Part shown: piece after piece, positions 49,951-64,000 of the stretch | How the letters are laid out: each line of letters begins with the position of its first letter | Position numbering within the stretch: the first letter of the stretch is position 1 | Source: a virus | DNA length: 64,000 nucleotides | Virus record (IMG/VR): IMGVR_UViG_3300032156_000001 | Coordinates: 64,001-128,000 of that record | Strand: one strand, 5' to 3' | The notes under the pieces: model-generated | The model's database searches: none | What the model was told of the DNA's origin: nothing | Seen by the model: only the letters and a program-made list of their open reading frames with translations | Translations under genes and position numbers: made by a program

Positions 49951-50784
49951 ATGGCGGAGGAAAAACCCATGCGAAAAGCCCTTCTTGTTGGCATCAACCA
50001 GTACAGCGCGCCGTACGCGCTGCAGGGCTGCGTCAACGACGTCATGGCGATGCGCAGCCTGCTGCGCGACTACCTGGGCTTCCCGGCGTCGGGCATCCTG
50101 ATCCTGAAGGACAAGCAGGCGACCACGAGGAACATCCTGAACGGCCTGAGGTGGCTGGCCAACATCAACGCCGGCGGCATCGCCCTGTTCCACTATTCCG
50201 GTCACGGCGCGCAGGTGCTCACCAGCGACCCCGGCGAGCCGGACGGATTGGCCGAGTGCATCTGCCCGGTCGACTTCAACTGGACGCCGCAGCGCATGAT
50301 CACCGACAAGCAGCTTGTCGCGGCGCTGGCGTTGCTGCCGTCCACCGCGGCTACGAACTGGTTGTCGGATTCCTGCCATGCGGGAGGACTGGACGAGACC
50401 GACCGCGGCGCCAAATCGCTCGCGACCGACAAGCGGACCCTGCGGCACATGATACTGCCGCCTGCCATGGCCGCCGAGGTGGAGCGCCTGAGGAAGAAGA
50501 AAAAGACCAAGGTGCGGACGATGGCGAAGTCGCTGAAGGCGGCGGAACTGGCCGTAGGCTTCATGGCGGCCTGCAGGGCCAACCAGACGGCGTCCGACAC
50601 GTACGAGGACGGTCGGTGGTGCGGCGCGTTCACGTGGGCGTTCCTGAAGGCCGTGAAGGCCAATACCCGCGCGGCGCTGACCGACCTCTGCGCGACCACG
50701 CGTTCGACCCTGTCGAAGGCGCGCTACTCGCAGGCCCCGCAGGTGGAAGGCACGAGGATCGACAAGCCGTTCCTGTCCTGGTGA
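49951..50784 (+). CDS. caspase-family cysteine protease (metacaspase, peptidase C14)
   Basis: KALLVGINQY, LQGCVND, FHYSGHG (catalytic His), SDSCH (catalytic Cys), GAFT. Confidence 0.9.
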   Translation: MAEEKPMRKALLVGINQYSAPYALQGCVNDVMAMRSLLRDYLGFPASGILILKDKQATTRNILNGLRWLANINAGGIALFHYSGHGAQVLTSDPGEPDGLAECICPVDFNWTPQRMITDKQLVAALALLPSTAATNWLSDSCHAGGLDETDRGAKSLATDKRTLRHMILPPAMAAEVERLRKKKKTKVRTMAKSLKAAELAVGFMAACRANQTASDTYEDGRWCGAFTWAFLKAVKANTRAALTDLCATTRSTLSKARYSQAPQVEGTRIDKPFLSW

Positions 50785-50798
50785 CGGAAGGAGGTCCG

Positions 50799-51050
50799 AT
50801 GGCGACCGCGCTGAACGCCGGCCGCGGCTTCACGAGCCGCAAGTTCATCGTAGTCATCGTGGCGCTGGTGTGCTTCACCGTCCTGGCGTACTCGATGATC
50901 ATGCCGATAGAGCTGTACGCGGACCTGGTGACGTGGCTGCTGATCGCGTACATGGCCGTCGAGGGCGGCGGGGACGCCATCAGCCGCACGAAATGGGCCC
51001 GGCCGACGGAGCTGATGCCGCCCAAGGACGCGCCGCCGCCCAAGCCTTGA
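50799..51050 (+). CDS. holin-like small two-TM protein
   Basis: FTSRKF followed by two hydrophobic helices. Confidence 0.55.
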   Translation: MATALNAGRGFTSRKFIVVIVALVCFTVLAYSMIMPIELYADLVTWLLIAYMAVEGGGDAISRTKWARPTELMPPKDAPPPKP

Positions 51051-51075
51051 CTTTTCGGCACCGCGCGCGAACAAT
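51047..51075 (+). promoter_or_regulatory. possible sigma70-like promoter
   Basis: TTGACT-17 nt-AACAAT. Confidence 0.45.
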
Positions 51076-51104
51076 GCGGGGGGACGACAAAGGAGGCCGA
51101 CGCC

Positions 51105-51986
51105 ATGCCGTTCAAGTCGAAGTCGCAGTGGCATAAGTTCTTCGCGATGGCCAACCGCGGGGAGATCTCCGAGGGAAAGGCGAAAGAGTGGGCAGAAGAG
51201 ACCAAGACGCCCTTCAAGAGCCTGCCGGAAAAGAAGAAGGAGAAGGCCGAGAAGAAGTCCGCCGCCGACGTCTCCAGGGCCGCCCAGATAGCGGAAGGCA
51301 CGCCGATGGAGAAGAAGGAGCACGGTGTCGGCACCGCCGCGGCCAGGCAGATCGCTACCGATCACGTCGATGAGCATCCCGGCAAGGATGTCTACGGCGA
51401 GTTGAAGAAAGTGGACGCGAAGCTGGAGAAGAAGGAGGCGAGCCAAGTGGACAACTTCGAGAAGGTGCGCGCGCTGCTGGCCAAGGCGGCCGAAGGCCTG
51501 ATGCCCGAACAGGAAGACGGCGTCACGGGGTCCATGGGGCCCGGGGCCGCCGCGCCGGGTATCTGGTCGCAGCTGGCGCAGGCGCTCGGCGGGGCCGGCG
51601 AGTCCATCAAGGGCATGGCCAGCAAGGGCCTCGGGTTCGCGAAGAGCCTGCCCGGCAAGTTCGAGGCGATGCCCGGCTGGCAGAAAGGCCTGGCGGGGGC
51701 CGGCGTCGGCGGAGCGGGAGTGCTCGGCGGGGTCGGCCTGTACAGCCTGATCCGGCACATCCTGGCCAACCGCGCGGAGAAGGAAGGCGCGGCGCACGAC
51801 CTGCCCTGCGGCGGCTTCGCGGACGGCTTCCTGTCCTACTGCATCGATAACAAGCTGACCGACGACCAGACGCTGGAGCTGCTCGAGAAGGGCGCGGCGC
51901 TGGAAGGGCCGGCCGGCGAGGAGCTCGTCGACCTGGCCGGCCAGTTGGCCAAGGTGGGCATGCAGAAGGCGGCGGAGACGAAGTGA
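51105..51986 (+). CDS. putative virion-associated protein (MPFKS N-terminal motif + DUF5661-like segment)
   Basis: MPFKSKSQW...; EKKEHG...ARQIATDHVDEH...YGEL; several K-x-A motifs. Confidence 0.65.
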   Translation: MPFKSKSQWHKFFAMANRGEISEGKAKEWAEETKTPFKSLPEKKKEKAEKKSAADVSRAAQIAEGTPMEKKEHGVGTAAARQIATDHVDEHPGKDVYGELKKVDAKLEKKEASQVDNFEKVRALLAKAAEGLMPEQEDGVTGSMGPGAAAPGIWSQLAQALGGAGESIKGMASKGLGFAKSLPGKFEAMPGWQKGLAGAGVGGAGVLGGVGLYSLIRHILANRAEKEGAAHDLPCGGFADGFLSYCIDNKLTDDQTLELLEKGAALEGPAGEELVDLAGQLAKVGMQKAAETK

Positions 51987-52357
51987 CGCCGGCCAGGATC
52001 CTCTCCTACAAGGCCGGCTTCCTGCGCAAGCTCGCGGAAGCCGGCGTCCTGCCCTCCGAGGCCATGGCCGCCGTGAAGGTAGCGGCGGGCAAGCCGGAGG
52101 GCGGCGGGGGCGGCATGCCGTCCATAAGCAAGGCGCTCGGCCAGCTGGCGTCCCTGGCGCCGTCGGCCGTGAAGGGGACCGCCGCGGTGGCCGTCGGCGC
52201 ACCCTTGGCCCTGGGCGCCGGCGCGGGCGCGCTGGACGCCGTCATGGACGCGCCGGTGCTCGACGCGGACATGCTGCACAAGATGGAGCTCATGGCCGCG
52301 TACCGGCAGGCGACGAAGGAGATCCTTAACCGGCAGGCGGCGCGCAAGGGCGGGTAG
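51983..52357 (+). CDS. hypothetical Ala/Gly-rich protein
   Basis: 124 aa; operonic overlap. Confidence 0.65.
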   Translation: MTPARILSYKAGFLRKLAEAGVLPSEAMAAVKVAAGKPEGGGGGMPSISKALGQLASLAPSAVKGTAAVAVGAPLALGAGAGALDAVMDAPVLDADMLHKMELMAAYRQATKEILNRQAARKGG

Positions 52358-52372
52358 CCGCGAAGGAGCGAC

Positions 52373-52822
52373 ATGCCTGACGAGCCGTCCGCGGCCAGCA
52401 GCAGCGCGGAACAGGAAGTGCGGCCCGTCGGCGTCGCCGAAAGCGCCGACTCCCTTCCCGATGAAGTCGAGCGCCCGCCGCTCCCTGCGCACCTGCTCGA
52501 TCCCGCCAACGTGCTCGGCAAGGAATCCGTCCTGCCCGGCATGGACGGCCTGCCGTTCAGGGGGCCGATCCCCGACCTGCGCGAGACGGACCCCGACCAC
52601 ATGCGCCCGCAGGTGGGTTACGGGGCGCACGTGCAGCTGTTCGTGCTGAGCAAGCCGAAGGACTTGGCGTATTACCAGCAGGTGATCCAGCTCATGGCGA
52701 ACGGGTTCGCGGTGATGGGCGCCGAGGACAGGGTCTACGATAAGGACATCAAGTCGTGGCGGATACTGCTGCGCTGGTACGAGCAGTTCGCCACCATGAA
52801 GCCGAGGGGCATGGTCCCGTAG
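52373..52822 (+). CDS. hypothetical protein
   Basis: 149 aa; AAGGAG RBS. Confidence 0.7.
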   Translation: MPDEPSAASSSAEQEVRPVGVAESADSLPDEVERPPLPAHLLDPANVLGKESVLPGMDGLPFRGPIPDLRETDPDHMRPQVGYGAHVQLFVLSKPKDLAYYQQVIQLMANGFAVMGAEDRVYDKDIKSWRILLRWYEQFATMKPRGMVP

Positions 52823-52830
52823 GGGGCGCC

Positions 52831-53754
52831 GTGGGAAAGATAGCCGAACGGCTGATAGCGATGGGCCTGGCCAAGAAGGCCGAACCGCCCGACTGGGAGG
52901 GCCGCCTGTCGGAGCAGGAGGACCGCCTTCGCCAGATCATGCCGCCGTCGAGGGACGAGGCGCAGGCGGAGGCCAAGACGCGCATCGACGCCATGCGCCG
53001 CAAGGCGTACATCCTCGGCTACGCGATGCGCGGCCAGCACGCGCCCAAGGCGGAGCAGCAGCTGGCCGAGCTGTCCGGCGCGATACAGCCGCAGCAGGAG
53101 ACCGTGGAAGTTCCGGCCGTGAAGGCCGGTGAGGACAAGAAGGCACTGCTGGGCCCGATCATCGAGCCCATCCAGGCGCTGCTGCAGTCCGCGCGGCACA
53201 CGGTGCCCATGAATGCGCGGCTGGCGCTCCAGGGGCCGACGGCCGTGACCGCCGACCCCACCACGCTGCCCGGCTACGGCGCGCAGGCTTCCGGCGCGGT
53301 CGCGAGCGGCTTCCAGGAGGGCGTCGGCCACGCCACCGAGGACATGAAGAAGGACATCCACGGCAAGCTCGACACTGAGCTGGCCCAGGCGAAGACCGAG
53401 TTCGAGGCCGCCATGGCCAGCGAGACCGCCGGCGCCAAGGAGGCGGGCGAGCTGGGCCGGCTGCTCGACAAGGCCGCGGCGGAGAAGTCCGCCGAGGGCG
53501 AGCTGAACAAGCTGCTCAACCTCTACCTGGCTGCGGCGGGCCTCGTCGGCGCCGCCGGCCACGCCGCCGGGCGCAGCGCCGTGGCGGGCAGGCTGCCGGA
53601 ATACGCGCGCGCCAAGGCGATCAAGGACCTGGCGCGCCAGCGCACGCAGGAGGCGCCGGTCCTCATCGCGCCGCAGAAGGAGCTCGCCCTGGACGAACCC
53701 GACGCCGGCGAAGAGGAACCCGAGCCGGCCGTCACGCAGCCGGTAACGGCATGA
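52831..53754 (+). CDS. hypothetical Ala-rich protein
   Basis: GTG 52831 within ORF 52756-53754. Confidence 0.65.
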   Translation: MGKIAERLIAMGLAKKAEPPDWEGRLSEQEDRLRQIMPPSRDEAQAEAKTRIDAMRRKAYILGYAMRGQHAPKAEQQLAELSGAIQPQQETVEVPAVKAGEDKKALLGPIIEPIQALLQSARHTVPMNARLALQGPTAVTADPTTLPGYGAQASGAVASGFQEGVGHATEDMKKDIHGKLDTELAQAKTEFEAAMASETAGAKEAGELGRLLDKAAAEKSAEGELNKLLNLYLAAAGLVGAAGHAAGRSAVAGRLPEYARAKAIKDLARQRTQEAPVLIAPQKELALDEPDAGEEEPEPAVTQPVTA

Positions 53755-53764
53755 GGAGGGGCGG

Positions 53765-56700
53765 ATGCCCGACAGCGACCTTCCGCTCGGCCTCCCGGCC
53801 GCCCAGCCGCTCCAGTTGCGCCGCTTCGACGACCACCACGCCGCGCGCGTCAATATCCTGAACGGCGTCGTGTCGGCGCTGCAGGAGAAGTATCCCGTCG
53901 AGAACGAGCGGTACAGGTTGGAGCTTTCCGGCCTGCACTACAAGCAGCCCAACAGCTACTCGCTGGAGGAGCAGAAGAAGGCGATCATCCACGGCGACTC
54001 GCTGCACGCCAAGCTGCACGGCACGTGGGCGCTGATTGACAAGGCCAGCGGCAAGCCGGTAGACACCAAGGAGACCGTCGTGGCGCACGTGCCGTGGCTG
54101 ACCGAGCGCGGCACGCTCATCCACAACGGGTCCGAGTATTTAATAAGTTCGCAATTCCGTTTGAAGCCCGGCGTCTACTCGCGCATGAAGGACAACGGCA
54201 TCCTGGAGGCCCACGTCAACGTGAAGCCCGGGACCGGGCCGTCCTTCCGCGTCTACATGGAGCCGGAGACCGGCGTGTTCCGCATGGCGGTCGGGCAGTC
54301 CACGCTGAAGCTCTACCCGATCCTGCGATCCATGGGCGTGTCCGACAAGGAGCTGCGCGACGCCTGGGGCGAGGAGCTGCTGCACAAGAACGTCGAGGCC
54401 GAGGACCCGCGCGCGGTAGGCCGCGCGTTCGCGAAGCTGGTCGAGAAGCCCGTCGAGGAAGGGCACCCGACGATCGTGTCTGCCGCGATGCCGGAGCTGC
54501 CGAAGGCGGCCAGCGAGACGCCCGAGACGGTCAAGAAGCTGCAGAAGATCGTCGATGCGCACAAACTTAAAGGCGGATATGGCGACGTTGCCTGGGACGA
54601 GGAGACCGGCGAGACCCACCTGTCCGTCGGCGACTGGCACGAGCAGGAAGACTATGCCGGGCTTGAGAAGGCCATCAAGGCCGTCCCGGGCGTGAAGAAG
54701 TTCCAGGTCGAGGCGGAAATAGGTCCGCCCGACGGCTGGTGGGCCGTCAACCACGGTCGTGAGCCGAAGATCTGGCACAAGCCGAAGCCGCGCGATCCCG
54801 AGCAGGAAGCCGCATTCATGGCCAGCCTCGACGGGCCGCCGCTCAAGATTGTCGGGCAGACGCTCAAGGAGGCCCAGGCGCCGATCGGCCAGAAGACCAC
54901 GGACCGCAAGTGGAAGTACCTGTGGTTCCACGGCGAGCTGTACACGAACCCGCCCGACAAGGAGCACCCGGATCCGTGGGTGCTGCTGAAGGTCCACAAG
55001 GGCCTGCCGCAGGCCGCCTATGCCACGCTGAAGGGCGAGGGCGTCGACTGCGAGCCGCACTACGACGACCCGCACGTCTCCGTCCTGCGCGGCGAGGAAG
55101 TCCGCGAGCTCATAAAGAAGTATGGCGACCAGTGGCAAGGCGCGGCCAAGATCGGTCAGAAGATGCGCTTCCGCCTGAGCAAGATCGTCAGCCTCGTGCC
55201 GGGCGGCTGGCCGGAGATGGACCGCGTGTGGTTCATCGAGGTAGAGTCGCCCGAGCTGGAGGAGTACCGGAAGGACCTCGGCTTCCGCAATCTGCCGCTC
55301 CAGCCGAAGACTGGCAACGAGGTCAGGTTCCATGTCACTTTCGCCGTGAAGCCGAACGTCGCGAGCAAGGCCGCCGCGGCGCTGACCGAGCCGCCCGAGG
55401 AAGGGGCGACGGCGCCGGCGGTCAAGCCGCCCGGCGAGGAAGGCCGGAAGATCCTGCACGCGCTCCAGCAGATGGAGCTCGACCCCGACGTCACGGAGTC
55501 GACGCTAGGCGAGCGGCACGTGAACGTGACGCCGAAGATGATGGTCCGGGCGACAAAGAAGCTGCTGGGCATCCAGAAGGGGACCGAGGAGACCGACGAC
55601 CGCGACTCGCTGGCCTACCAGACGCTGCACTCGCCGGAGGACTTCTTCGCGGAGCGGATCAGGCGCGATGCCGGCGGGCTGGGCAGGCGGATGCTGTGGC
55701 ACGCGACCAGGAAGGGCAACCTCGACTACGTCCAGAGCGGCGCGCTGACGCCGCAGATGCACGCCGTCCTGCTGAGCAGCGGGCTGGCCGCCGCGGCCGA
55801 GGAAACGAACCCGCTCGAGCTGGCCGATCAGCATCATCGCGTCGTGCGCACGGGCGAGGGAGGGATGTCGTGTTATTCGGAAGATACCGAAGTGCTAACG
55901 ATAGAAGGATGGAAACACTGGGGAACCGTCGTCGCTGCTGACGAACTTGCCTGTCGGGTGAACGGTCGGTTGGAGTTCCACCGACCGACGCGTCTTTTTA
56001 GCGGCGCATATCGCGGAAAGCTCTTATCTGCCGATACCCGGGTGATCAACTACGCGGTTACTCCGGATCATAGGGTGTTCGTGTCTTGGGATACGACGAC
56101 GGCCGGCCACGAATCGGTTCGGTCTCCGTTCCGGTTTCGGCCGGCTTTCGATATCCACGGCAAAAGAGTGCGGCATTTGGTTTCCGCTGAACCGTATCTG
56201 GGTGGCAGCCGGCCGGACAAACACGTTTTGCCGCCTGCGCCCGTTGACCGGGAAAACGCAGGATCCGCGAGAAGAGAGGCACTAGAGCTTGATTTTCTGG
56301 ACTGGGTGGAGTTCCTCGGTTGCTACCTGGCTGACGGCAGTTTCAGGTACGATGGCGACCGGCACGAATACCGAACGGAAGTTGGGAAAGTCCGATCATT
56401 GAATCCTGGCGAATACGCTACGATTGACGCCGTTTTGCGCCGATTGGGATTCACTTACAGATATGAGCAGAATCGTCGGTTTATCGTTCACGGGAAACAT
56501 CTGGCACACTACTTGTCGAAGTTTGGTAAAGCATGGACGAAGTACGTGCCGGAATACGTGATGCGCGGCGATATAGAAACGCGAAAGCGTTTCTTCTTTG
56601 CCATAACGACGATGGATCACACGGCGGCGTGCCCTGGACTGTCCTTCAAATATATGTCCGCTTCACCTAAGCTGGCCGAGCAGGTGGCTTGGCTGGCTGT

Positions 56701-59700
56701 TTCTCTCGGATACGCAGTTCACTACCTGACTCGCGTCAACCACAACAGGACCAATCCGATACATGTCATTCATATTTCTGAAGCCTCGGAAAGTCTCGTC
56801 TATCGGCAACACGCCGGCTTGCAGTATCGTGAACTTGATTATGCTGGAACGGTCTATTGCGCGTCTGTTCCTGGGGAGCTGGTATTTATACGTAGACACG
56901 GAAAAACGATGTGGTGTGGCAACTCCTTAGATGCAGTCCCCGAGGAGGCCAGGGTGGTGCAGCCGTCCCACTTCGGCTTCGTCGATCCGAGCCGCGCGCC
57001 CGAATCTGCAAGAATGGGTTTGGACAGCAGGATCGCCCACGGCGCGCTGCGCGGCAGCGACGGCCAGGTCCATGCGCCGATGCTGGACCTGAAGACCGGC
57101 AAGACCGAACTAGTGTCCGCGGCGCAGGCCGTCAAGAGCGTGGTCGCGTTCCCCGGCGAGATGGCCAGGACCGGCGCCACCGCCCGCGCCATGGTGCGCG
57201 GCAAGCGCATCGAGAACGTGCCGAAGGGCGAGGTGGACTTCGAGCTGCCCCACCACGCGCACATGTTCTCCGGGGTGACGAACCTCGTCCCCATGGCCGG
57301 CGCGCTGAAGGGCGGCCGGCTCATGATGGGCGCGAAGTTCTTCAGCCAGGCGCTGCCGCTCCAGCACAGCGAGGCGCCGCTGGTCCAGAACCTGTCGCCG
57401 GACGGCCGCAGCTTCGACGAGATCATGGGCGAGAAGGTCGGCGCGGTGCGGGCGGCCAAGCGCGGCGTCGTTATCGGCATCGACAAGAACAAGGTCCTCG
57501 TCCGCGAGGAGGGCGGCGGCAAGCGCGAGTACCCGCTGTACGACAACTTCGTCTTCAACAGGCGCACCGCGATCCACAACACGCCCGCCGTCGGCATCGG
57601 CGAGACGGTCGAGCCGGGCGCGCTGCTGGCCAGGAGCAACTATACGGACGCCAAGGGCGACACGGCGGTCGGGCTGAACTTGCGGACCGCGTACATGCCG
57701 TTCAAGGGCCTGAACTACGAGGACGCCGTCGTCATCAGCGAGAGCGCCGCCCAGCGGCTCAGCTCCGAGCACATGTTCCAGCGGACGCTCGAGAAGGACG
57801 ACCGCGACATGGAGTTCGGCAAGAAGCCGTTCATGTCGGTCTTCCCGGCCAAGTACGTCAAGGACCAGCTGGGCCGGATGGACGAGCACGGCGTGGTCAG
57901 ACCCGGGACCGTCGTGAAGAAGGGCGACCCGCTGATCCTCGGCATGGAGAAGACGCGGTTCACGCACACGCACCGCGGCCACAAGCCCATCTACACCGAC
58001 GCGTCGGAGACGTGGGACCACGAGGCGGACGGCACCGTCACGGACGTGTCGCCCACCAAGGGCGGCGGCTGGAACGTCACCGTGAAGACGTACCTGCCGG
58101 CGCAGACGGGCGACAAGCTGGCCGCGCGGTTCGGCGACAAGGGCGTCATCTCCGAGGTGATGCCGGACCACCAAATGCCGCACGACTCGCAGGGCAGGCC
58201 CATCGAGCTGTGCCTGAACCCGCTGGGGGTCATCAGCCGCGGCAACCCCGCGCAGGTCTACGAGGCGCTGCTGGGCAAGATCGCCCGGAAGACCGGGCGC
58301 GCGTACGTGGTGCCGTCCTTCCGAAACGGCAGCTGGATCGACTTCGTCCAGGGCGAGCTGCGCAAGAACGGCCTGAGCGACACGGAGGACCTGACCGACC
58401 CCTCGACGGGGACGAAGATCCCCGGCGTCCTGACCGGCGAGCGCTTCATGATGAAGCTGCACCATACCGCCGAGTCGAAGGGCAAGGGCAGGGACGTCGG
58501 CAGCTACACGTCGGAGGGGCTGCCCGCCATAGGGAGCAAGCGGATAGGCCAGATGGAGACCAGCGCGCTGGTCTCGCACAACGTCATGGACGTGCTCAAG
58601 GACGCCAAGCTGGTCCGCGGCCAGAGGAACGACGACTACTGGCGCGAGTTCCGCATGGGCAACGTGCCCGCGTCGCCGCAGACGCCGCTGGTCTACAGGA
58701 AGTTCCTGGCCAGCCTCACGGGCGCCGGCATCAACGTGAAGAAGGAGGGCAACAAGCTCAACCTGTTCGCCCTGACGGACAAGGACGTCGACAAGCTCAG
58801 CGCCGGCGAGGTCAAGGCCCCGCATACCGTCGCCGGCAACGATCTCGCGGAGATAGAGGGCGGCCTGTTCGACAAGGGGCTAACGGGCGGGCATGGCGGT
58901 TCGCGGTGGAGCCACGTGAATCTCGACGAGCCGACGCCCAACCCCGTCATGGAGGAGCCCACTCGCAGGCTGCTCGGCATGACGCAGAAGCAGTTCGAGG
59001 CGGCCATCTCGGCGCGCGGCGGCCAGGGGATCAAGGACGCGCTCTCGAAGATGGACGTGGACCGCGAGATCACTCGGTACGAGGACGAGGTCAAGACGGG
59101 CGCGCGGTCGCGGCGCGATAACGCCGTGAAGTGCCTCGGCTATCTTGAGGCCATGCGGACGCAGGGTTACAAGCCGGAAGAGCTGGTGATGTCGAAGGTC
59201 CCCGTCCTGCCGCCGGGCATGCGCCCCATCGTCCCGTTCCAGGGCAGGCCGCTGGTGTCGGACCCGAACTATCTGTACCGCGACCTGATGCACGCGAACC
59301 AGGATCTGAAGGACGCGAAGGGCGAGCTCGGCGCGGAGCGCGCCGGCGCAGAGCGGCTACGGCTGTACAACGCCTTCAAGGCGGTGACCGGCCTGGGCGA
59401 CCCCGTGCAGGCGAAGACCCGCGAGGCCAACGTGCGCGGCCTGCTGGCGCACGTGTTCGGGACCGGCGGACCCAAGACTTCGATGTTCCAGCGTCGTGTC
59501 CTCAGCACGCCGGTGGACGTGGTCGGGCGCGCGGTCATCACGCCGAACCCGCAGCTGTCGATGGACCAGGTCGGCCTGCCCGAGGAGAAGGCCTGGACGA
59601 TCTACAGACCGTTCATAACCCGCAGGCTGATCCGGCGCGGCATGCCCGCCACCGAGGCCGCGCGCGCCGTGGCGGACAGGCACCCCACGGCGAAGAACGC

Positions 59701-60139
59701 GCTGCTGGAGGAGATGCAGGCCCGGCCCGTCCTCATCAACCGCGCGCCGACGCTGCACAAGTACGGCTTCATGGCGGCGTGGCCGACGCTGGTGAAGGGC
59801 GACACGCTGCAGATCTCGCCGGTGGTGACGCCGGGCTTCGGCGCGGACTTCGACGGCGACGCGATGAACTACCACGTGCCGGTGTCCGACGCCGCCGTCC
59901 GCGAGGCCAAGGAGAAGATGCTGCCGTCGGCGAACTTGCGCGACGTCCGCGGGTTCAAGCTGCACTACCTGCCTCGACACGAGTTCCTGCTTGGGCTATA
60001 CTTGGCCAGCACGGCGGACAACCGCAACGAGCCGCGGTCGTTCCGCACGAGACAGGACGCGCTGCGCGCCTACCGCCGCGGCGAGCTCGGGCTTGGCGAC
60101 CGCGTGGCCACGCTGGACGAAGGGGAGAAGAAGAAATGA
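53765..60139 (+). CDS. phage multisubunit RNA polymerase, beta subunit fused to the N-terminal/catalytic part of beta'; contains an intein and inserted domains
   Basis: beta: GDKLAARFGDKGVI, NPLGVISRGN, FMMKLHH, SKRIGQME. beta': VPVLPPGMRP, SDPNYLYRDL, VDVVGRAVITP, NRAPTLH, GADFDGDAM (DFDGD at 59846-59860). Confidence 0.92.
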   Translation: MPDSDLPLGLPAAQPLQLRRFDDHHAARVNILNGVVSALQEKYPVENERYRLELSGLHYKQPNSYSLEEQKKAIIHGDSLHAKLHGTWALIDKASGKPVDTKETVVAHVPWLTERGTLIHNGSEYLISSQFRLKPGVYSRMKDNGILEAHVNVKPGTGPSFRVYMEPETGVFRMAVGQSTLKLYPILRSMGVSDKELRDAWGEELLHKNVEAEDPRAVGRAFAKLVEKPVEEGHPTIVSAAMPELPKAASETPETVKKLQKIVDAHKLKGGYGDVAWDEETGETHLSVGDWHEQEDYAGLEKAIKAVPGVKKFQVEAEIGPPDGWWAVNHGREPKIWHKPKPRDPEQEAAFMASLDGPPLKIVGQTLKEAQAPIGQKTTDRKWKYLWFHGELYTNPPDKEHPDPWVLLKVHKGLPQAAYATLKGEGVDCEPHYDDPHVSVLRGEEVRELIKKYGDQWQGAAKIGQKMRFRLSKIVSLVPGGWPEMDRVWFIEVESPELEEYRKDLGFRNLPLQPKTGNEVRFHVTFAVKPNVASKAAAALTEPPEEGATAPAVKPPGEEGRKILHALQQMELDPDVTESTLGERHVNVTPKMMVRATKKLLGIQKGTEETDDRDSLAYQTLHSPEDFFAERIRRDAGGLGRRMLWHATRKGNLDYVQSGALTPQMHAVLLSSGLAAAAEETNPLELADQHHRVVRTGEGGMSCYSEDTEVLTIEGWKHWGTVVAADELACRVNGRLEFHRPTRLFSGAYRGKLLSADTRVINYAVTPDHRVFVSWDTTTAGHESVRSPFRFRPAFDIHGKRVRHLVSAEPYLGGSRPDKHVLPPAPVDRENAGSARREALELDFLDWVEFLGCYLADGSFRYDGDRHEYRTEVGKVRSLNPGEYATIDAVLRRLGFTYRYEQNRRFIVHGKHLAHYLSKFGKAWTKYVPEYVMRGDIETRKRFFFAITTMDHTAACPGLSFKYMSASPKLAEQVAWLAVSLGYAVHYLTRVNHNRTNPIHVIHISEASESLVYRQHAGLQYRELDYAGTVYCASVPGELVFIRRHGKTMWCGNSLDAVPEEARVVQPSHFGFVDPSRAPESARMGLDSRIAHGALRGSDGQVHAPMLDLKTGKTELVSAAQAVKSVVAFPGEMARTGATARAMVRGKRIENVPKGEVDFELPHHAHMFSGVTNLVPMAGALKGGRLMMGAKFFSQALPLQHSEAPLVQNLSPDGRSFDEIMGEKVGAVRAAKRGVVIGIDKNKVLVREEGGGKREYPLYDNFVFNRRTAIHNTPAVGIGETVEPGALLARSNYTDAKGDTAVGLNLRTAYMPFKGLNYEDAVVISESAAQRLSSEHMFQRTLEKDDRDMEFGKKPFMSVFPAKYVKDQLGRMDEHGVVRPGTVVKKGDPLILGMEKTRFTHTHRGHKPIYTDASETWDHEADGTVTDVSPTKGGGWNVTVKTYLPAQTGDKLAARFGDKGVISEVMPDHQMPHDSQGRPIELCLNPLGVISRGNPAQVYEALLGKIARKTGRAYVVPSFRNGSWIDFVQGELRKNGLSDTEDLTDPSTGTKIPGVLTGERFMMKLHHTAESKGKGRDVGSYTSEGLPAIGSKRIGQMETSALVSHNVMDVLKDAKLVRGQRNDDYWREFRMGNVPASPQTPLVYRKFLASLTGAGINVKKEGNKLNLFALTDKDVDKLSAGEVKAPHTVAGNDLAEIEGGLFDKGLTGGHGGSRWSHVNLDEPTPNPVMEEPTRRLLGMTQKQFEAAISARGGQGIKDALSKMDVDREITRYEDEVKTGARSRRDNAVKCLGYLEAMRTQGYKPEELVMSKVPVLPPGMRPIVPFQGRPLVSDPNYLYRDLMHANQDLKDAKGELGAERAGAERLRLYNAFKAVTGLGDPVQAKTREANVRGLLAHVFGTGGPKTSMFQRRVLSTPVDVVGRAVITPNPQLSMDQVGLPEEKAWTIYRPFITRRLIRRGMPATEAARAVADRHPTAKNALLEEMQARPVLINRAPTLHKYGFMAAWPTLVKGDTLQISPVVTPGFGADFDGDAMNYHVPVSDAAVREAKEKMLPSANLRDVRGFKLHYLPRHEFLLGLYLASTADNRNEPRSFRTRQDALRAYRRGELGLGDRVATLDEGEKKK
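54940..55350 (+). other. 2H-phosphoesterase-like domain inserted in the RNAP beta region
   Basis: Two HxS/T motifs: PHVSV (55073) and FHVTF (55331). Confidence 0.65.
55871..56923 (+). mobile_element. intein (351 aa) with LAGLIDADG-type homing endonuclease domain
   Basis: Starts CYSEDTEVLT, ends VYCASVPGELVFIRRHGKTMWCGN, +1 Ser; FLGCYLADGSF block; lower GC than the exteins. Confidence 0.9.
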
Positions 60140-61029
60140 GCCAGGATCTTGCTACCTTGAAGCTCGTCATGGAGACCGTGGCGGAGGTCCAGCGGCGCTG
60201 GGAGAAGCGGGGCTTCGTCCCGCTCGATTCCTCCGGCATGATGGTGCAGCCGCAGCAGCAGATGGATCCCTCGATGGGCGGGATGCCCGGCGGGCAGCCG
60301 CCGGGAGCTCCTCCGGGGCCCATGCCCCCCGGCGGCGCGCCCCCGCCCGGCGCGGGCGGAATGCCCCCGGGAGCGCCACCGGAAGCCGGTGGAATGCCGC
60401 CGGAAGCCGGCGGCGCTGCTCCCGGTGGGGCTCCTCCCGGCCAGCCCGTCATGGTCAGCCTGAACGACCTGATCCAGCTGTTCCAGATGATCGTCCAGCA
60501 GCTCGGCGGCGCGGCTGCCCCTGGCGGGGCGGCCGCCCCGGCGCAGGCCCCCGCGGAAGCGCCCAAGAAGGGCAAGGTCGCCGTGGAAGAACAGCTGGCG
60601 CAACTGAACGCGAAGCTCGATCAGCTGCTCGGCGCGCTGGGCGGCGGCTCCGCTCCGGCTCCCGCTCCCACCGGGGGCCCTCCTGCTGCCGCCCCCGCCG
60701 AGCCGACGCAGGCCGGCCCCGTCGCGCCCGCGGCGCCGATGCAGGTCCAGGCCAGCGCGATCGGCAAGCCGGAAGAGGACCCCGGCGAGCCGCCTTCGCT
60801 GTCCGACCCGATCAAGACGGCCGAGATCCCGACGAGCGGCCCGGCGAACCCCGCGCTTGGCGCGGCGACCCCGGCCGCCGCAGTTCCTCCGCCGGCGCTT
60901 CCCCCGCCGGCCTCGATGCAGCCGCCCACCGCTGTCGCCATGCAGCAGCCGGCAGGTGGGCTGGCGGGTGCCAAGGCGCAGTCGATGGCCAAGAGGATAA
61001 CCGAACTGAGAGGAGCGCCCAAGAAGTGA
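60136..61029 (+). CDS. Pro/Gly/Ala-rich low-complexity protein
   Basis: ATG 60136 overlaps the RNAP stop; PPGA/APA tracts around short helices. Confidence 0.7.
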   Translation: MSQDLATLKLVMETVAEVQRRWEKRGFVPLDSSGMMVQPQQQMDPSMGGMPGGQPPGAPPGPMPPGGAPPPGAGGMPPGAPPEAGGMPPEAGGAAPGGAPPGQPVMVSLNDLIQLFQMIVQQLGGAAAPGGAAAPAQAPAEAPKKGKVAVEEQLAQLNAKLDQLLGALGGGSAPAPAPTGGPPAAAPAEPTQAGPVAPAAPMQVQASAIGKPEEDPGEPPSLSDPIKTAEIPTSGPANPALGAATPAAAVPPPALPPPASMQPPTAVAMQQPAGGLAGAKAQSMAKRITELRGAPKK

Positions 61030-61253
61030 AGGTGCGCGTGCAGTCAGGCGACATGAGCTCCGTGGAGTTGGAGGACGCCCGCAGCGCGGTGGTCATAGAC
61101 GACCACGGGCAGCCGATCGTGCTGGTGCAGTCGATGGCGCCTGGCCAAGTCCTGGTAGCGCGGGCGTCGGACCCGAACTTCAGGAAGCAGATCGAGGCGC
61201 TCGGCATAGGGTTGCGAGCCGATTTCGAGGTGCGAAAGGGCCATGCGAGCTGA
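61026..61253 (+). CDS. small hypothetical protein
   Basis: GTG 61026 overlaps the upstream stop; 75 aa. Confidence 0.55.
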   Translation: MKVRVQSGDMSSVELEDARSAVVIDDHGQPIVLVQSMAPGQVLVARASDPNFRKQIEALGIGLRADFEVRKGHAS

Positions 61254-64000
61254 CTGGTTCACGGACGCCGTTTACGCCTCCGCGTTGCCGCCGGCTGTCA
61301 AGGAAGTGGCAGGGTGGGGCGGCGCCGGTCGGGCTTTCGGGGGGCGCACGTTCGCCGCCCCGGTCTTCGGGCGGCTCTTCGGACGGACGGCGGCGCCTGC
61401 GGCAGAACAGGCCGCTGCAGGCGCCGCTGCGCGCATCGTGCCGGTAGCAAAGGGGACCGCTGCGGCTGCCGGAACGGCCGCGCGGCCGGGCGCTTTGGCT
61501 GCACTCGGGCAACAGTTCCGGCCGGGCAACGTGGCGTCCCAGTTTTCCCGGCAGCTCGGCTTGGGCGGGTTGGGGACCGCCGCAAGAGGGGAACTGACGT
61601 CGCAATTGCGTTCCGGCGGGCGCATAGGGGAAGAACTGGTAAGGCAGTTCGGCCTTGGCAGCCCCGCGATGGCCGCGCTGGCGCCTGGCATAGCGACACG
61701 GCGCATGGCGGCGCAGCTGGCCCTTCGACCGCCGGTTCCCGCCTTGCAAGGCATCAAGTGGCAGGCGGGTGAAGCGGGTCCGCCCGGCTTGCGTTCCTTG
61801 GTGCCGTCGAGAATGCCGCACGAGCCGGGAGGGACAGTGGAACGCGCCGTCCCGGGGGAACAGTTGGGCGGCGTTCGCATCGGCGGGCGCACGCAGGCGT
61901 ACGCGGAGTCTCCCTCCGGGACCGCCACCGTGCTTCCCATCCTGTATCGGCCGCGGCCTGCGCCCGTACCGGCGCCGGCGGCGTCGATGACTACGCACGT
62001 CACGCCCGCGCAGGCGGCATCAGGCACGCCGGCAGCTGCGAAGACGCCCACGCCAGCGCAGGCCGCTTCGGGGACCATGACAACGTCGAGAAGCCGCGGC
62101 ATGAGCATGGCACCGGCGCAAGGCGAGCAGCCGGCCGCGCCCGGCCAGCCGCCGGCAGGGACCCCGTTGACGCAGGAAGCGTTCATGAAAGGCATCGAGT
62201 CGATACGGCCGGAGACGGGCTTCATGGCCGGCGTCAAGGGCATGCTTCCGTGGATGGCGCTAAGCTACGGACCGCAGATGCTCTCGGGTCTTTATCGCGG
62301 ATTCGTCAAGCCGGACGAGGAGGAAGGCCGCGCGCAGGAAGCGCAGGGCCCGCGCTATAGCCACGGCGTTTCGCCGTACGCTAGCCCAGTCGCCGAGTCG
62401 GAACGGTATCGGTACTGGCCGAAAGGCGCTGCGGACGTTTCCAAGGCCTTGGAAAAGTCGGCTAAGCGGACGTGGCGCTCGAAGTCCTTCCGCAAGTTCA
62501 CGCTGCTGCACAGGTTCCCCGGCAAGACGAGGATGTCGGCCATGCGCAGGAAGACCGTCGCGCGCAGCATGCCGTTCGCTGCCAAGTCGGCCTTCTACTG
62601 CGGCTTGGCGAAGCGTTGCGCCGAGCTCGGCCTTGACAGGGACGACGGCAGGGCCGTCGTGGAAGCCCTGCAGAAGCTGGCCTTCGACGGGGAAAATCCA
62701 CGGCCGGAAGAGGAGGAAATAGACCCGCTGTACACTTATGCCCCGGCGGTTGGCGCCGCCGGCGCGGGTCTTCTTGCTGGCGCCGGGACTGGCGGAGGTC
62801 TGCTGGCTTCCGGCGTGGGCGGCACAATGGTTGGCGGCATGGCGCTCTCTCCATTTGAAAGGTTCGCCGAGGGGGTGCGGAGGAGCCACGCGACTGAAGG
62901 TTGGGGAAAGAATTGGCCGCTGCTGTATTCGACCGGTCAGGGCTTCAAGAACATGGTGACCGGCGAATACGGATCCGATCCCTACGGGTCCGCCCCCGCT
63001 TCGGCGGGGAAGGCGGGAAAGGGCGGCGTCGGCACCGACCCGATGGCACTCGACAAGGCAATAGGCACGCTTAAAGATCCGGAAGTGTATAAGCGGATGA
63101 TTCGGGAGGAGAAAGAAAAGTTCGGGCCGATGAACGCGGAAAGATTGAAAGGTTTTCTCAATCTTGCGTATGAGCAAGCGCGAGTAGGCGGCGAGGTGTC
63201 CCCCGGCGAGGCCGCCGCGTCGGCCACCACGGGGATGATCCCCGGCATACGGGGGCTTGACCGCGCCCAAAAGAGCAAGATCCTTCGCAGGCTTCATCCC
63301 GAGTTGGACGCCGTGAAAACATTGCCGGCATTCCAGACGCCGGGGATCGGCGCGGCGCCCGGGGTAGGAACAGCGCCCGGAGTTAGCAGGCCGTCTGGCG
63401 CTGTCGGGCCGCAGGGCACAGCCGCTGCGCCCATGCCGGGTTCGCCGGCAGCTGCCCGAAGGCCCATGAGCGGCCAGAAGTCCACGCGCGACCAGGTCAG
63501 CCTGATAAGGCAGGAAGCAGCCACGCGGCAGGCGCCGGCCGCTCCGAAGGCCCCGGCGCCGACCGGCTCGCCCAGCGCCGCTGCGGCTCCGGCATCGACT
63601 GGTGCGGCACCGCGACCGTGGTCCGCCCGCGGCGGATTCGAGGGCGCTGAGGGGACCCGTTACGGCATGGCGCAGTCCGGCGGCGAATACGTGCCGCTCA
63701 GCGGCGGCGCCAACACGGAACCTGGCCAGACATACGGCGGCGCGGGGAGCTTCGACATAGACCGAAGGCGCGGCAGCATCGGACTGCCCGTGGCCGCGCG
63801 ACAAGCAATGCAATCGTTCCGTCAACCGCCCAGCGGCGCTTACGCTGCCCCGGAAGGAGCGGTCTACGGCCGCGGGTCCGCAATGGGCGGTCCCGAGCGG
63901 TTCTCGTTCGACCCGTCGGAACGGCTTGTGGGGACTGCGCTGTCAGCGCTGACGGGAGCGGGCGGCGGACAACCCGCCCCGGCGGCCCAGGGCGTGCCGG
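61243..64000 (+). CDS. large Ala/Gly/Pro-rich protein, truncated by the window end (over 900 aa; missing from the supplied ORF track)
   Basis: ATG 61243 (MRADWFTDAVY...); frame read open to 64000; its absence from the track is consistent with no stop in the window. Confidence 0.7.
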   Translation, partial: MRADWFTDAVYASALPPAVKEVAGWGGAGRAFGGRTFAAPVFGRLFGRTAAPAAEQAAAGAAARIVPVAKGTAAAAGTAARPGALAALGQQFRPGNVASQFSRQLGLGGLGTAARGELTSQLRSGGRIGEELVRQFGLGSPAMAALAPGIATRRMAAQLALRPPVPALQGIKWQAGEAGPPGLRSLVPSRMPHEPGGTVERAVPGEQLGGVRIGGRTQAYAESPSGTATVLPILYRPRPAPVPAPAASMTTHVTPAQAASGTPAAAKTPTPAQAASGTMTTSRSRGMSMAPAQGEQPAAPGQPPAGTPLTQEAFMKGIESIRPETGFMAGVKGMLPWMALSYGPQMLSGLYRGFVKPDEEEGRAQEAQGPRYSHGVSPYASPVAESERYRYWPKGAADVSKALEKSAKRTWRSKSFRKFTLLHRFPGKTRMSAMRRKTVARSMPFAAKSAFYCGLAKRCAELGLDRDDGRAVVEALQKLAFDGENPRPEEEEIDPLYTYAPAVGAAGAGLLAGAGTGGGLLASGVGGTMVGGMALSPFERFAEGVRRSHATEGWGKNWPLLYSTGQGFKNMVTGEYGSDPYGSAPASAGKAGKGGVGTDPMALDKAIGTLKDPEVYKRMIREEKEKFGPMNAERLKGFLNLAYEQARVGGEVSPGEAAASATTGMIPGIRGLDRAQKSKILRRLHPELDAVKTLPAFQTPGIGAAPGVGTAPGVSRPSGAVGPQGTAAAPMPGSPAAARRPMSGQKSTRDQVSLIRQEAATRQAPAAPKAPAPTGSPSAAAAPASTGAAPRPWSARGGFEGAEGTRYGMAQSGGEYVPLSGGANTEPGQTYGGAGSFDIDRRRGSIGLPVAARQAMQSFRQPPSGAYAAPEGAVYGRGSAMGGPERFSFDPSERLVGTALSALTGAGGGQPAPAAQGVP
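62438..62455. repeat. dispersed 18-bp palindrome, copy 6 (in-frame, encodes SKALE)
   Basis: TTTCCAAGGCCTTGGAAA. Confidence 0.9.

Follow-up and report, generated by a model that had tools for sequence, protein, structure and literature searches.

A 64,000-nucleotide stretch of viral DNA (the window; bases 64001-128000 of the 188,118-bp IMG/VR virus record IMGVR_UViG_3300032156_000001, whose completeness CheckV estimates at 90%) contains a rearranged gene for a multisubunit RNA polymerase (RNAP). A single open reading frame (ORF) of 2124 amino acids encodes the β subunit joined to the N-terminal ~40% of β′, up to about residue 558 of E. coli β′, together with an intein and an insertion in the β lobe that carries a 2H phosphoesterase domain. 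The remainder of β′ (β′C) is encoded by a separate gene downstream. The same fusion and the same split recur in relatives of the protein, and the family stands apart from cellular β′ in a phylogenetic tree. The fused gene very probably specifies the large subunit of a phage-encoded, bacterial-type two-barrel RNAP, completed by the split-off β′C, relieved of its intein, and directed by sigma factors as proposed below. Judged by sequence, this layout is the conserved state of a large group of ~180-kb phages and not a peculiarity of a single genome.

The fusion gene and the separate gene for the rest of β′

The window has a G+C content of ~65%, and its + strand holds nearly all of the genes. The RNAP gene and its parts are listed here in window coordinates, except where the genome is named, with the basis of each assignment in parentheses.

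53765..60139, + strand: whole RNAP ORF, 2124 amino acids (ORF translation, Pfam, BLASTP against Salmonella RpoB and RpoC)
53765..54388, + strand: N-terminal part of β, residues 1-208, equivalent to E. coli/Salmonella β 22-231 (BLASTP)
54389..55540, + strand: lineage-specific insertion in the β lobe, residues 209-592 (gap in the BLASTP map)
54956..55369, + strand: 2H phosphoesterase domain, residues ~398-535 (Pfam 2H-SAK PF22547, conserved His residues, AlphaFold 2 model, VIA-align, BLASTP)
55871..56923, + strand: intein with a LAGLIDADG homing endonuclease, residues 703-1053, 351 amino acids (homologues, fold, composition)
56924..58747, + strand: C-terminal part of β with the double-psi barrel, residues 1054-1661 (Pfam, PDB search, BLASTP)
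58748..60136, + strand: N-terminal part of β′, residues ~1662-2124 (Pfam, PDB search, Thermus alignment, BLASTP)
Genome 128346-130190 (window-equivalent 64346-66190): β′C gene, 614 amino acids, ATG start (Pfam, BLASTP)

Pfam places Rpb2 domain 6 at residues 1263-1582 of the fusion protein (Rpb2_6, E 9.5e-48), followed by Rpb1 domain 1 at 1794-1852 and Rpb1 domain 2 at 1986-2051; the E values of its RNAP domains, from 1e-10 to 1e-48, are far beyond chance. By BLASTP, residues 22-231, 425-559, 546-931, and 1050-1340 of Salmonella β correspond to residues 8-208, 593-723, 1061-1428, and 1440-1661 of the fusion protein, and Salmonella β′ 175-548 corresponds to residues 1743-2114. A PDB sequence search with the β part returned Thermus and other β subunits at 1e-59. 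Since Salmonella β is 1342 amino acids long and is matched up to residue 1340, β should end here at about residue 1661. The β′ N terminus follows directly, with the stretch KKEGNKLNLF...GGLFDK aligning with Thermus β′ 2-51, so that the two subunits are joined at their natural ends, essentially without a linker. Two E. coli-specific insertions, β 932-1049 and the trigger-loop insertion after β′ 939, are missing, as judged by gaps in the BLASTP map.

The catalytic residues of both barrels are in place. The Lys-pair motif of the β barrel, GDKLAARFGDKGVIS, is present at ~1449-1463 (GDK...GxKG type), with K1451 and K1459 unchanged in 18 relatives. In β′, the catalytic motif is GADFDGD (residues 2026-2032, window 59840-59860), with the Mg-binding stretch D2028, F2029, D2030, G2031, and D2032 invariant and the leading Asn replaced by Gly; 92 residues remain before the end of the ORF. 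Cellular β′ subunits have a four-Cys Zn ribbon between the GLFxxxIFG and RMGHIEL motifs. Only GLTGGHGGS, with no Cys, lies between the corresponding GGLFDK (1699) and RWSHVNL (1714) of the fusion protein, and the N-terminal Zn ribbon of β′ is therefore absent. The same 2124-residue protein, letter for letter, is found in two further assemblies (Logan SRR9617952 and ENA ERZ27248148), which argues that the fusion ORF is no assembly artifact, and the G+C content at third codon positions (GC3) is 0.88 across the whole 2124-codon ORF.

When all six frames of the genome were searched with Pfam Rpb1 domain 5 (PF04998), a single match appeared, at genome positions 128877-129755. This is the β′C gene, which starts 4206 nucleotides past the stop of the fusion gene and 346 nucleotides beyond the end of the window. 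Its product matches Rpb1_5 at E 4e-18 and, by BLASTP, Salmonella β′ 677-939 and 1194-1266. It contains the bridge helix (SGSRGNKVQF), a trigger loop (AAHALSEPLSQGSLGAKHLGG) that retains the conserved His, a second Zn site (DCGT...TCQ...CGKC), and a sandwich-barrel jaw; the conserved residues include G144, N145, Q148, K326, and H327. Extrapolation of the alignments puts the end of the fusion protein at about E. coli β′ 558 and the start of β′C at about 575, so no part of β′ is missing.

The initial annotation of this gene, made from the letters and ORF translations, had described β motifs leading straight into β′ motifs, the lack of Zn-binding Cys residues before RWSHVNL, the GADFDGD motif, and a stop about 90 residues beyond it. 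Every one of these elements is present, the first being borne out by both the Pfam order and the BLASTP map, but the 351-residue intein and the ~380-residue lobe insertion with its 2H domain had been missed. Nor is GADFDGD a fixed signature. Across the family the first residue of the motif is Asn in 56 proteins and Gly in 49, with a few Thr or Ala, and this alternation makes GADFDGD a common variant. The bridge helix and trigger loop had been taken to be encoded elsewhere or absent; the search of the remaining genome proposed at that stage located them elsewhere, in the β′C gene.

Conservation of the layout and its relation to cellular β′

Among 50,697 phage records searched with tblastn, a one-piece β-β′N protein turned up in four phages alone, Salmonella phage Arash and the Vibrio phages D69, D148, and D181, to whose proteins the fusion protein is ~33% identical. 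Closer relatives came from a collection of 5.8 billion proteins, from which we surveyed the best 120 (49-63% identity, 1297-2907 amino acids, contigs of up to 216 kb). In all 120, a single protein combines Rpb2_6 with Rpb1_2. DFDGD could be located in 113 relatives, and in 102 of these it is followed by a tail of 84-92 residues; ten outliers that we tested contain large insertions yet finish with the same tail of ~85 residues, and none of these ten contains β′C sequence. The N-terminal Zn ribbon is absent from Arash, D69, and the 62 of 120 relatives with a matchable flank, the other 58 not matching the search pattern and so not being scored.

The complementary piece is conserved as well. Stand-alone β′C proteins of ~610-620 amino acids form more than 120 clusters, and the orthologues all begin M-x-T-T-x-G-Q-L-L. 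In the two relatives seen in context, the gene order is β-β′N, two to four small genes, and β′C. At 90% identity the fusion family itself falls into more than 120 clusters, found on contigs of up to ~216 kb, and it also includes the four isolates. A single-protein search of viral contigs for related loci returned no relative. A scan of genome contigs returned nothing but misbinned phage contigs in metagenome-assembled genomes (MAGs) of many phyla, which consequently give no clue to the host.

We built an unrooted maximum-likelihood tree of β′N (IQ-TREE, LG+C20+F+G4; 32 rows, 371 columns) from 24 family members, Arash, D69, the unsplit β′ of Rhizobium phage RHph_Y65, and five cellular β′ sequences of four phyla (Salmonella, Acinetobacter, Staphylococcus, and the own rpoC genes of an Acholeplasmataceae and a Cytophagia MAG). 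The fusion family forms one side of a branch with support of 100/99. The five cellular sequences fall on one side of another branch (100/98), which divides the family plus Arash and D69 from the cellular sequences plus the Rhizobium phage; on the family's side, Arash and D69 sit together on a long branch of their own. Identity in β′N is 31-34% to bacteria and 32-34% to Arash and D69, and this equality indicates that the fusion group is old and divergent. The tree has no archaeal, mReC, phiKZ, AR9, or crAss rows. The last three were left out because too little of the protein matched for a reliable alignment, the matches of phiKZ-type proteins covering no more than 18-25% of the query (E 1e-5 to 1e-11). 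The tree is sufficient to reject nesting of the family within cellular RpoC accompanied by a frameshift, though not to locate the family within the RNAP tree of life.

RHph_Y65 (Kleczkowskaviridae) has an unsplit β′ of 1127 amino acids (L032:8752-12135), which lies on the cellular side of the tree on a very long branch.

These results bear on the possibility that the gene comes from a cellular rpoB-rpoC operon, or from a recent capture of one, and owes its fusion and truncation to a frameshift, misassembly, or gene decay. The best PDB sequence matches are indeed bacterial β and β′, and the identity to bacterial β′N is as high as that to Arash and D69. Against this stand the 188-kb virus record in which the gene lies, the identical protein in two independent assemblies, the GC3 of 0.88 over the entire ORF, stop and restart positions that more than 100 relatives share and that are separated by 4 kb of other genes, and the separation from cellular β′ at 100/98. 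We give a cellular origin of this kind almost no credence; the conserved architecture already refutes it. The initial annotation had named grouping within cellular RpoB/RpoC, explained by a frameshift, as the result that would overturn its reading. No frameshift is present, the family shares the stop position, and the phylogeny that the annotation called for separates the family from cellular β′. The annotation's proposal of a distinct viral RNAP architecture holds in that the enzyme is viral, noncellular, and distinct in layout; the layout is not unique, and a large group of phages, isolates among them, has it as a rule.

The intein, the 2H domain, and other genes

The intein interrupts a conserved β motif, GEGGMS|SLDAVPEEARVVQPSH, which we take to correspond to a conserved motif of E. 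coli β. Arash (GGMS-SERQ) and D69 (GGIA-SSQG) read through the site uninterrupted. The segment starts with Cys (C703), has a block B TPDH and the LAGLIDADG-type motif LGCYLADGSF, and ends in G1052-N1053, with S1054 as the +1 residue. Pfam searches (E up to 5) and PDB sequence searches with the segment alone were empty, and it was therefore identified only through its homologues and its fold. A phmmer search of 1.84 billion representatives yielded 6059 hits; end-to-end matches lie at the same site in other β-β′N proteins and also in PolB, where they are covered by Pfam intein/LAGLIDADG models. Cys1, TxxH, Gly350, and Asn351 are conserved in 22 homologues. An AlphaFold (AF2) model of the intein (predicted local distance difference test score [pLDDT], 92.4; predicted template modeling score, 0.91) matched the TliVMA intein (E 3e-18), PI-SceI (1e-12), and PI-PfuI (5e-11) in Foldseek. 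The G+C content of the intein, 53.8% with a GC3 of 0.57, is low compared with that of the exteins (67-68%, GC3 0.92-0.95), which indicates a recent arrival. The inteins of relatives occupy other positions, among them positions in or beside the DFDGD motif and in β′C.

In phages D181 (L004:9474-10422) and D148, the β-β′N gene is broken by an insertion that carries a homing endonuclease gene and may be a group I intron; in D69 the gene is intact.

The lobe insertion replaces the stretch that would match β 232-424, in which E. coli β presumably has its insertion SI1 and Arash and D69 have only ~100 residues. Its G+C content (66.8%, GC3 0.90) is like that of the remainder of the gene, and this native composition suggests that the insertion is old. 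Within it, Pfam 2H-SAK scores 30.3 bits (cutoff, 27), and the two His residues of the 2H motifs HVSV (H437) and HVTF (H523) are both invariant in 26 relatives. The AlphaFold model has a pLDDT of >90 over the 2H domain. Foldseek with the 426-residue model of the insertion found no match at E ≤ 0.001. VIA-align, run against 48,161 PDB chains, gave among its best matches to the 2H domain the penguinpox cGAMP phosphodiesterase (PDE; Z 7.0), Usb1 (6.6), the Burkholderia phage BCSR5 PDE (6.6), Acb1 (6.4), mouse hepatitis virus ns2 (6.4), LigT (6.3), and CPDase (6.1), and matched the flanks of the model with the E. coli and M. tuberculosis β lobe (Z 5.5-5.6). A small domain at ~249-321 resembled nothing more specific than alpha/beta sandwiches of a generic kind (ACT, BON, ring-building motif; Z 6-7) and was given no assignment. 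The phage and viral 2H enzymes (Acb1, the poxvirus cGAMP PDE, coronavirus ns2, and the BCSR5 PDE) and LigT/Usb1 likewise have two HxS/T motifs and the same fold, with Z values of 6.3-7.0 over 106-126 aligned residues. Those enzymes are free proteins, whereas the 2H domain here is inserted in the β lobe of an RNAP.

2H-SAK is the constant module of the lobe insertion and is found in most close relatives. Some relatives (for example, P0014, P0053, P0018, and P0060) have added modules: SET, DUF5661, LNS2/HAD-like, N-terminal GNAT, or an InPase fragment. A distant relative (P0103; 1469 amino acids, with a short β lacking the insertion) has a stand-alone 479-residue protein of 2H-SAK plus DUF5661 (L014:825-2264), encoded 9 kb upstream of its RNAP gene and matching the insertion at E 3e-10 by BLASTP with both His motifs in register. 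The 188-kb genome studied here has no further 2H-SAK gene. The occurrence of the domain as a free gene in one genome and as a fused module in another suggests a functional link between phosphoesterase and polymerase.

The genome has one β barrel and hence a single RNAP set. It has three sigma-70-like genes, listed below, the first of which probably encodes a specificity factor for the phage polymerase.

23808..24545, + strand: sigma-70-like gene with region 4 (PF04545, 43.5 bits; PHROG sigma-factor families)
Genome 50663-51211: sigma-70-like gene with regions 2 and 4
Genome 161447-161590: sigma-70-like gene

Six-frame Pfam searches of the genome for the alpha N-terminal domain (PF01193) and omega (PF01192) found neither, with 14 of 14 control genomes hit.

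Three further ORFs lie between the two RNAP genes.

60136..61029, + strand: Pro/Ala-rich ORF, 297 amino acids (sequence; gene calls in other assemblies; alignment with neighbors in relatives L012 and L014)
61026..61253, + strand: ORF of 75 amino acids, conserved in two relatives
61243..64000 and on to window-equivalent 64341, + strand: Ala/Gly/Pro-rich ORF, 1033 codons, ending just before β′C

The ATG of the 297-residue ORF overlaps the RNAP stop codon (ATGA, 60136-60139), making the two translationally coupled, and relatives have a comparable low-complexity gene after their RNAP gene. The 75-residue protein may be a small accessory of the polymerase; two relatives have small genes in the corresponding position, with products that share 46% and 28% identity with it. 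Pfam matched nothing in the five ORFs located between the RNAP genes or beyond them, the three listed here included. Directly upstream of the RNAP gene, a gene of ~300 amino acids (52861-53754) has a conserved position in L012 and L014; its product found only one homologue in the 5.8-billion-protein search. We considered it as an alpha-like subunit, an assignment that found no support: the protein lacks a Pfam or PHROG match and has hydrophobic and low-complexity stretches. Scans of 51000-64000 for promoter and terminator consensus sequences gave nothing above shuffles.

Proposed function and comparison with known systems

We propose that a precursor is made first, from which the LAGLIDADG intein (703-1053) would splice itself out and so restore the β motif. 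The spliced chain of ~1773 residues would carry a complete β head to tail with the N-terminal portion of β′, the latter contributing the clamp N terminus without its Zn ribbon and the Mg-binding GADFDGD barrel. The 614-residue β′C would add the bridge helix and the His-bearing trigger loop, along with the jaw and the second Zn site, and the two chains would assemble into one catalytic core, for which the three sigma-70-like proteins of the phage probably choose promoters. The 2H phosphoesterase in the β lobe is apparently active, in which case the enzyme would travel with the polymerase. By analogy with Arash, the polymerase may also be packaged in the virion for early transcription.

Several points weigh against parts of this proposal. 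The penultimate residue of the intein is Gly (WCGN|S) and not His, although its invariance in 22 homologues marks it as a subfamily trait. The 2H fold matches are middling (Z 6-7, where values below 8 can mean a common arrangement), so they confirm the superfamily and not the subfamily. The absence of alpha and omega is a result of Pfam six-frame searches alone, and these subunits may be divergent or supplied by the host. With regard to packaging, the β-β′N protein gp206 gave the most spectra (3516) in Arash virion preparations, its β′C, gp216, gave 1210, and the sigma factor gp10 was detected (PMC10585845). The same virion proteome, however, lists 116 proteins, including primase and ribonucleotide reductases (PMC10585845). 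Carry-over of abundant proteins in the preparation is possible, and Arash is only ~33% identical. The description of the enzyme as virion-packaged in the initial annotation was thus an overstatement, proteomics of this one distant phage, in a preparation rich in replication enzymes, being its sole basis.

The polymerase might be real and yet not packaged, made after infection from early genes transcribed by the host and then, with the phage sigma factors, transcribing middle and late genes only. We consider this quite possible, if not what we expect. The phage has a single RNAP set, whereas RNAP-injecting phages of the phiKZ type have a second, nonvirion set (PMC7824862); its own sigma-70-like factors fit a T4-like temporal cascade, and the many nonstructural enzymes in the Arash virion list suggest contamination. 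On the other hand, gp206 has the highest spectral count in Arash, above the major capsid protein and with 100% coverage, gp216 and gp10 are found with it, and the gene in Arash and D69 lies two genes past the portal gene (annotated in Arash only), among structural genes. A different question is whether the fusion is only a polyprotein, which a maturation protease would cut at Lys-x-Ala sites beside the 2H domain or at the β/β′ junction to give separate subunits as in phiKZ-type enzymes. In large phages a prohead protease often trims the proteins of the virion, Lys-x-Ala motifs flank the 2H domain (residues 247, 368, and 535; window ~54500-55380), and a K/R-A pair follows the domain closely in 20-24 of 26 relatives. 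But the K-x-A before the insertion is not conserved, the β/β′ junction has no linker, and rpoBC fusions at the same junction, both the natural one of Helicobacter and one engineered by Severinov et al. in 1997, are reportedly functional. The Arash paper reports no fragments and did not look for any. Cleavage into separate subunits seems improbable to us, and we retain an uncut fusion chain, paired with β′C, as the preferred reading.

A bolder idea, which we put forward as a speculation that will more probably fail than hold, is that the β lobe is a docking place for swappable enzymes (2H, with SET, GNAT, HAD/LNS2-like, and DUF5661 modules alongside), which would deliver an antidefense or host takeover activity at first transcription on a minimal two-chain core without alpha or omega. 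If so, a sigma-dependent and possibly injected polymerase would bring with it, for example, Acb1-like destruction of a cyclic-nucleotide alarm or the healing of RNA ends.

Each half of the layout has a cellular counterpart. The rpoBC fusions of Helicobacter and Wolbachia join the β C terminus to the β′ N terminus at the natural junction and have a full-length β′. The rpoC1-rpoC2 split of cyanobacteria and plastids likewise falls between conserved regions D and E, downstream of NADFDGD. The split here (~E. coli β′ 558-575 by BLASTP) is presumably somewhat upstream of the plastid site. We know of no cellular lineage that combines an rpoBC fusion with a split β′.

The nearest described systems are Arash (gp206, 1525 amino acids, plus gp216, 606 amino acids; OQ632216; PMC10585845), which has the same fusion and downstream β′C, and D69 (1527 plus 609 amino acids), in which the layout is the same with β′C a few genes downstream. 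They share with the present gene the junction, the end, the restart motif, and the lack of an N-terminal Zn ribbon, and the catalytic motif of the Arash-type isolates, AADYDGD, likewise does not begin with Asn. The genomes of Arash, D69, D148, and D181 are ~180-187 kb and also encode a sigma factor. Arash and D69 differ from the present protein in being only ~33% identical and on a separate long branch and in having neither the intein nor the 2H/lobe insertion. The Arash paper names gp206 as β and gp216 as β′ and mentions neither fusion nor split (PMC10585845).

In phiKZ/AR9-type phages β′ is likewise split past the catalytic barrel, and one enzyme is packaged in the virion (Iyer et al., PMC7824862). 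Those phages differ in having β in two or three pieces, nothing fused, two paralogous sets, and no sigma-70, and their sequences have diverged much further; here there are one unsplit β, one RNAP set, and three sigma-like genes. The mReC phages are tailed, metagenomic phages with a bacterial-like, alignable, deep-branching multisubunit RNAP (Weinheimer & Aylward 2020, PMC7481178). The phage entries in parts 9-10, sheet 1, of their Supplementary Data 2 list separate β (~900-1560 amino acids) and β′ (~900-1390 amino acids) proteins, with no β′ piece of ~615 residues among those entries, and the text of the paper mentions fusion for crAssphage only (PMC7481178). As far as these entries go, mReC phages thus have separate, unsplit subunits, in contrast to the β′ here, which is split and has its N-terminal part fused to β; by gene structure, the fused family is not what that part of the paper described.

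Literature searches, including full text, found no description of the fused and split layout, and a 2026 review of jumbo phages does not mention it (PMC13282480); it appears to be undescribed in the literature searched. The layout is a natural experiment on how the two barrels of an RNAP can be wired and assembled, and Arash, which grows on Salmonella ATCC 14028, offers a tractable system. The 2H domain, in the polymerase lobe here and stand-alone in a relative, gives a hint of the Rosetta-stone type that phage transcription may be coupled to the processing of RNA ends or nucleotide signals. Phage multisubunit RNAPs have been discussed as three kinds: the phiKZ/AR9 enzymes of four or five split subunits without sigma, the single chains of crAss and YonO, and the mReC enzymes with separate β and β′. 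The locus described here represents a fourth gene layout, β-β′N plus a separate β′C, without an N-terminal Zn ribbon or detectable alpha and omega and with sigma factors of its own.

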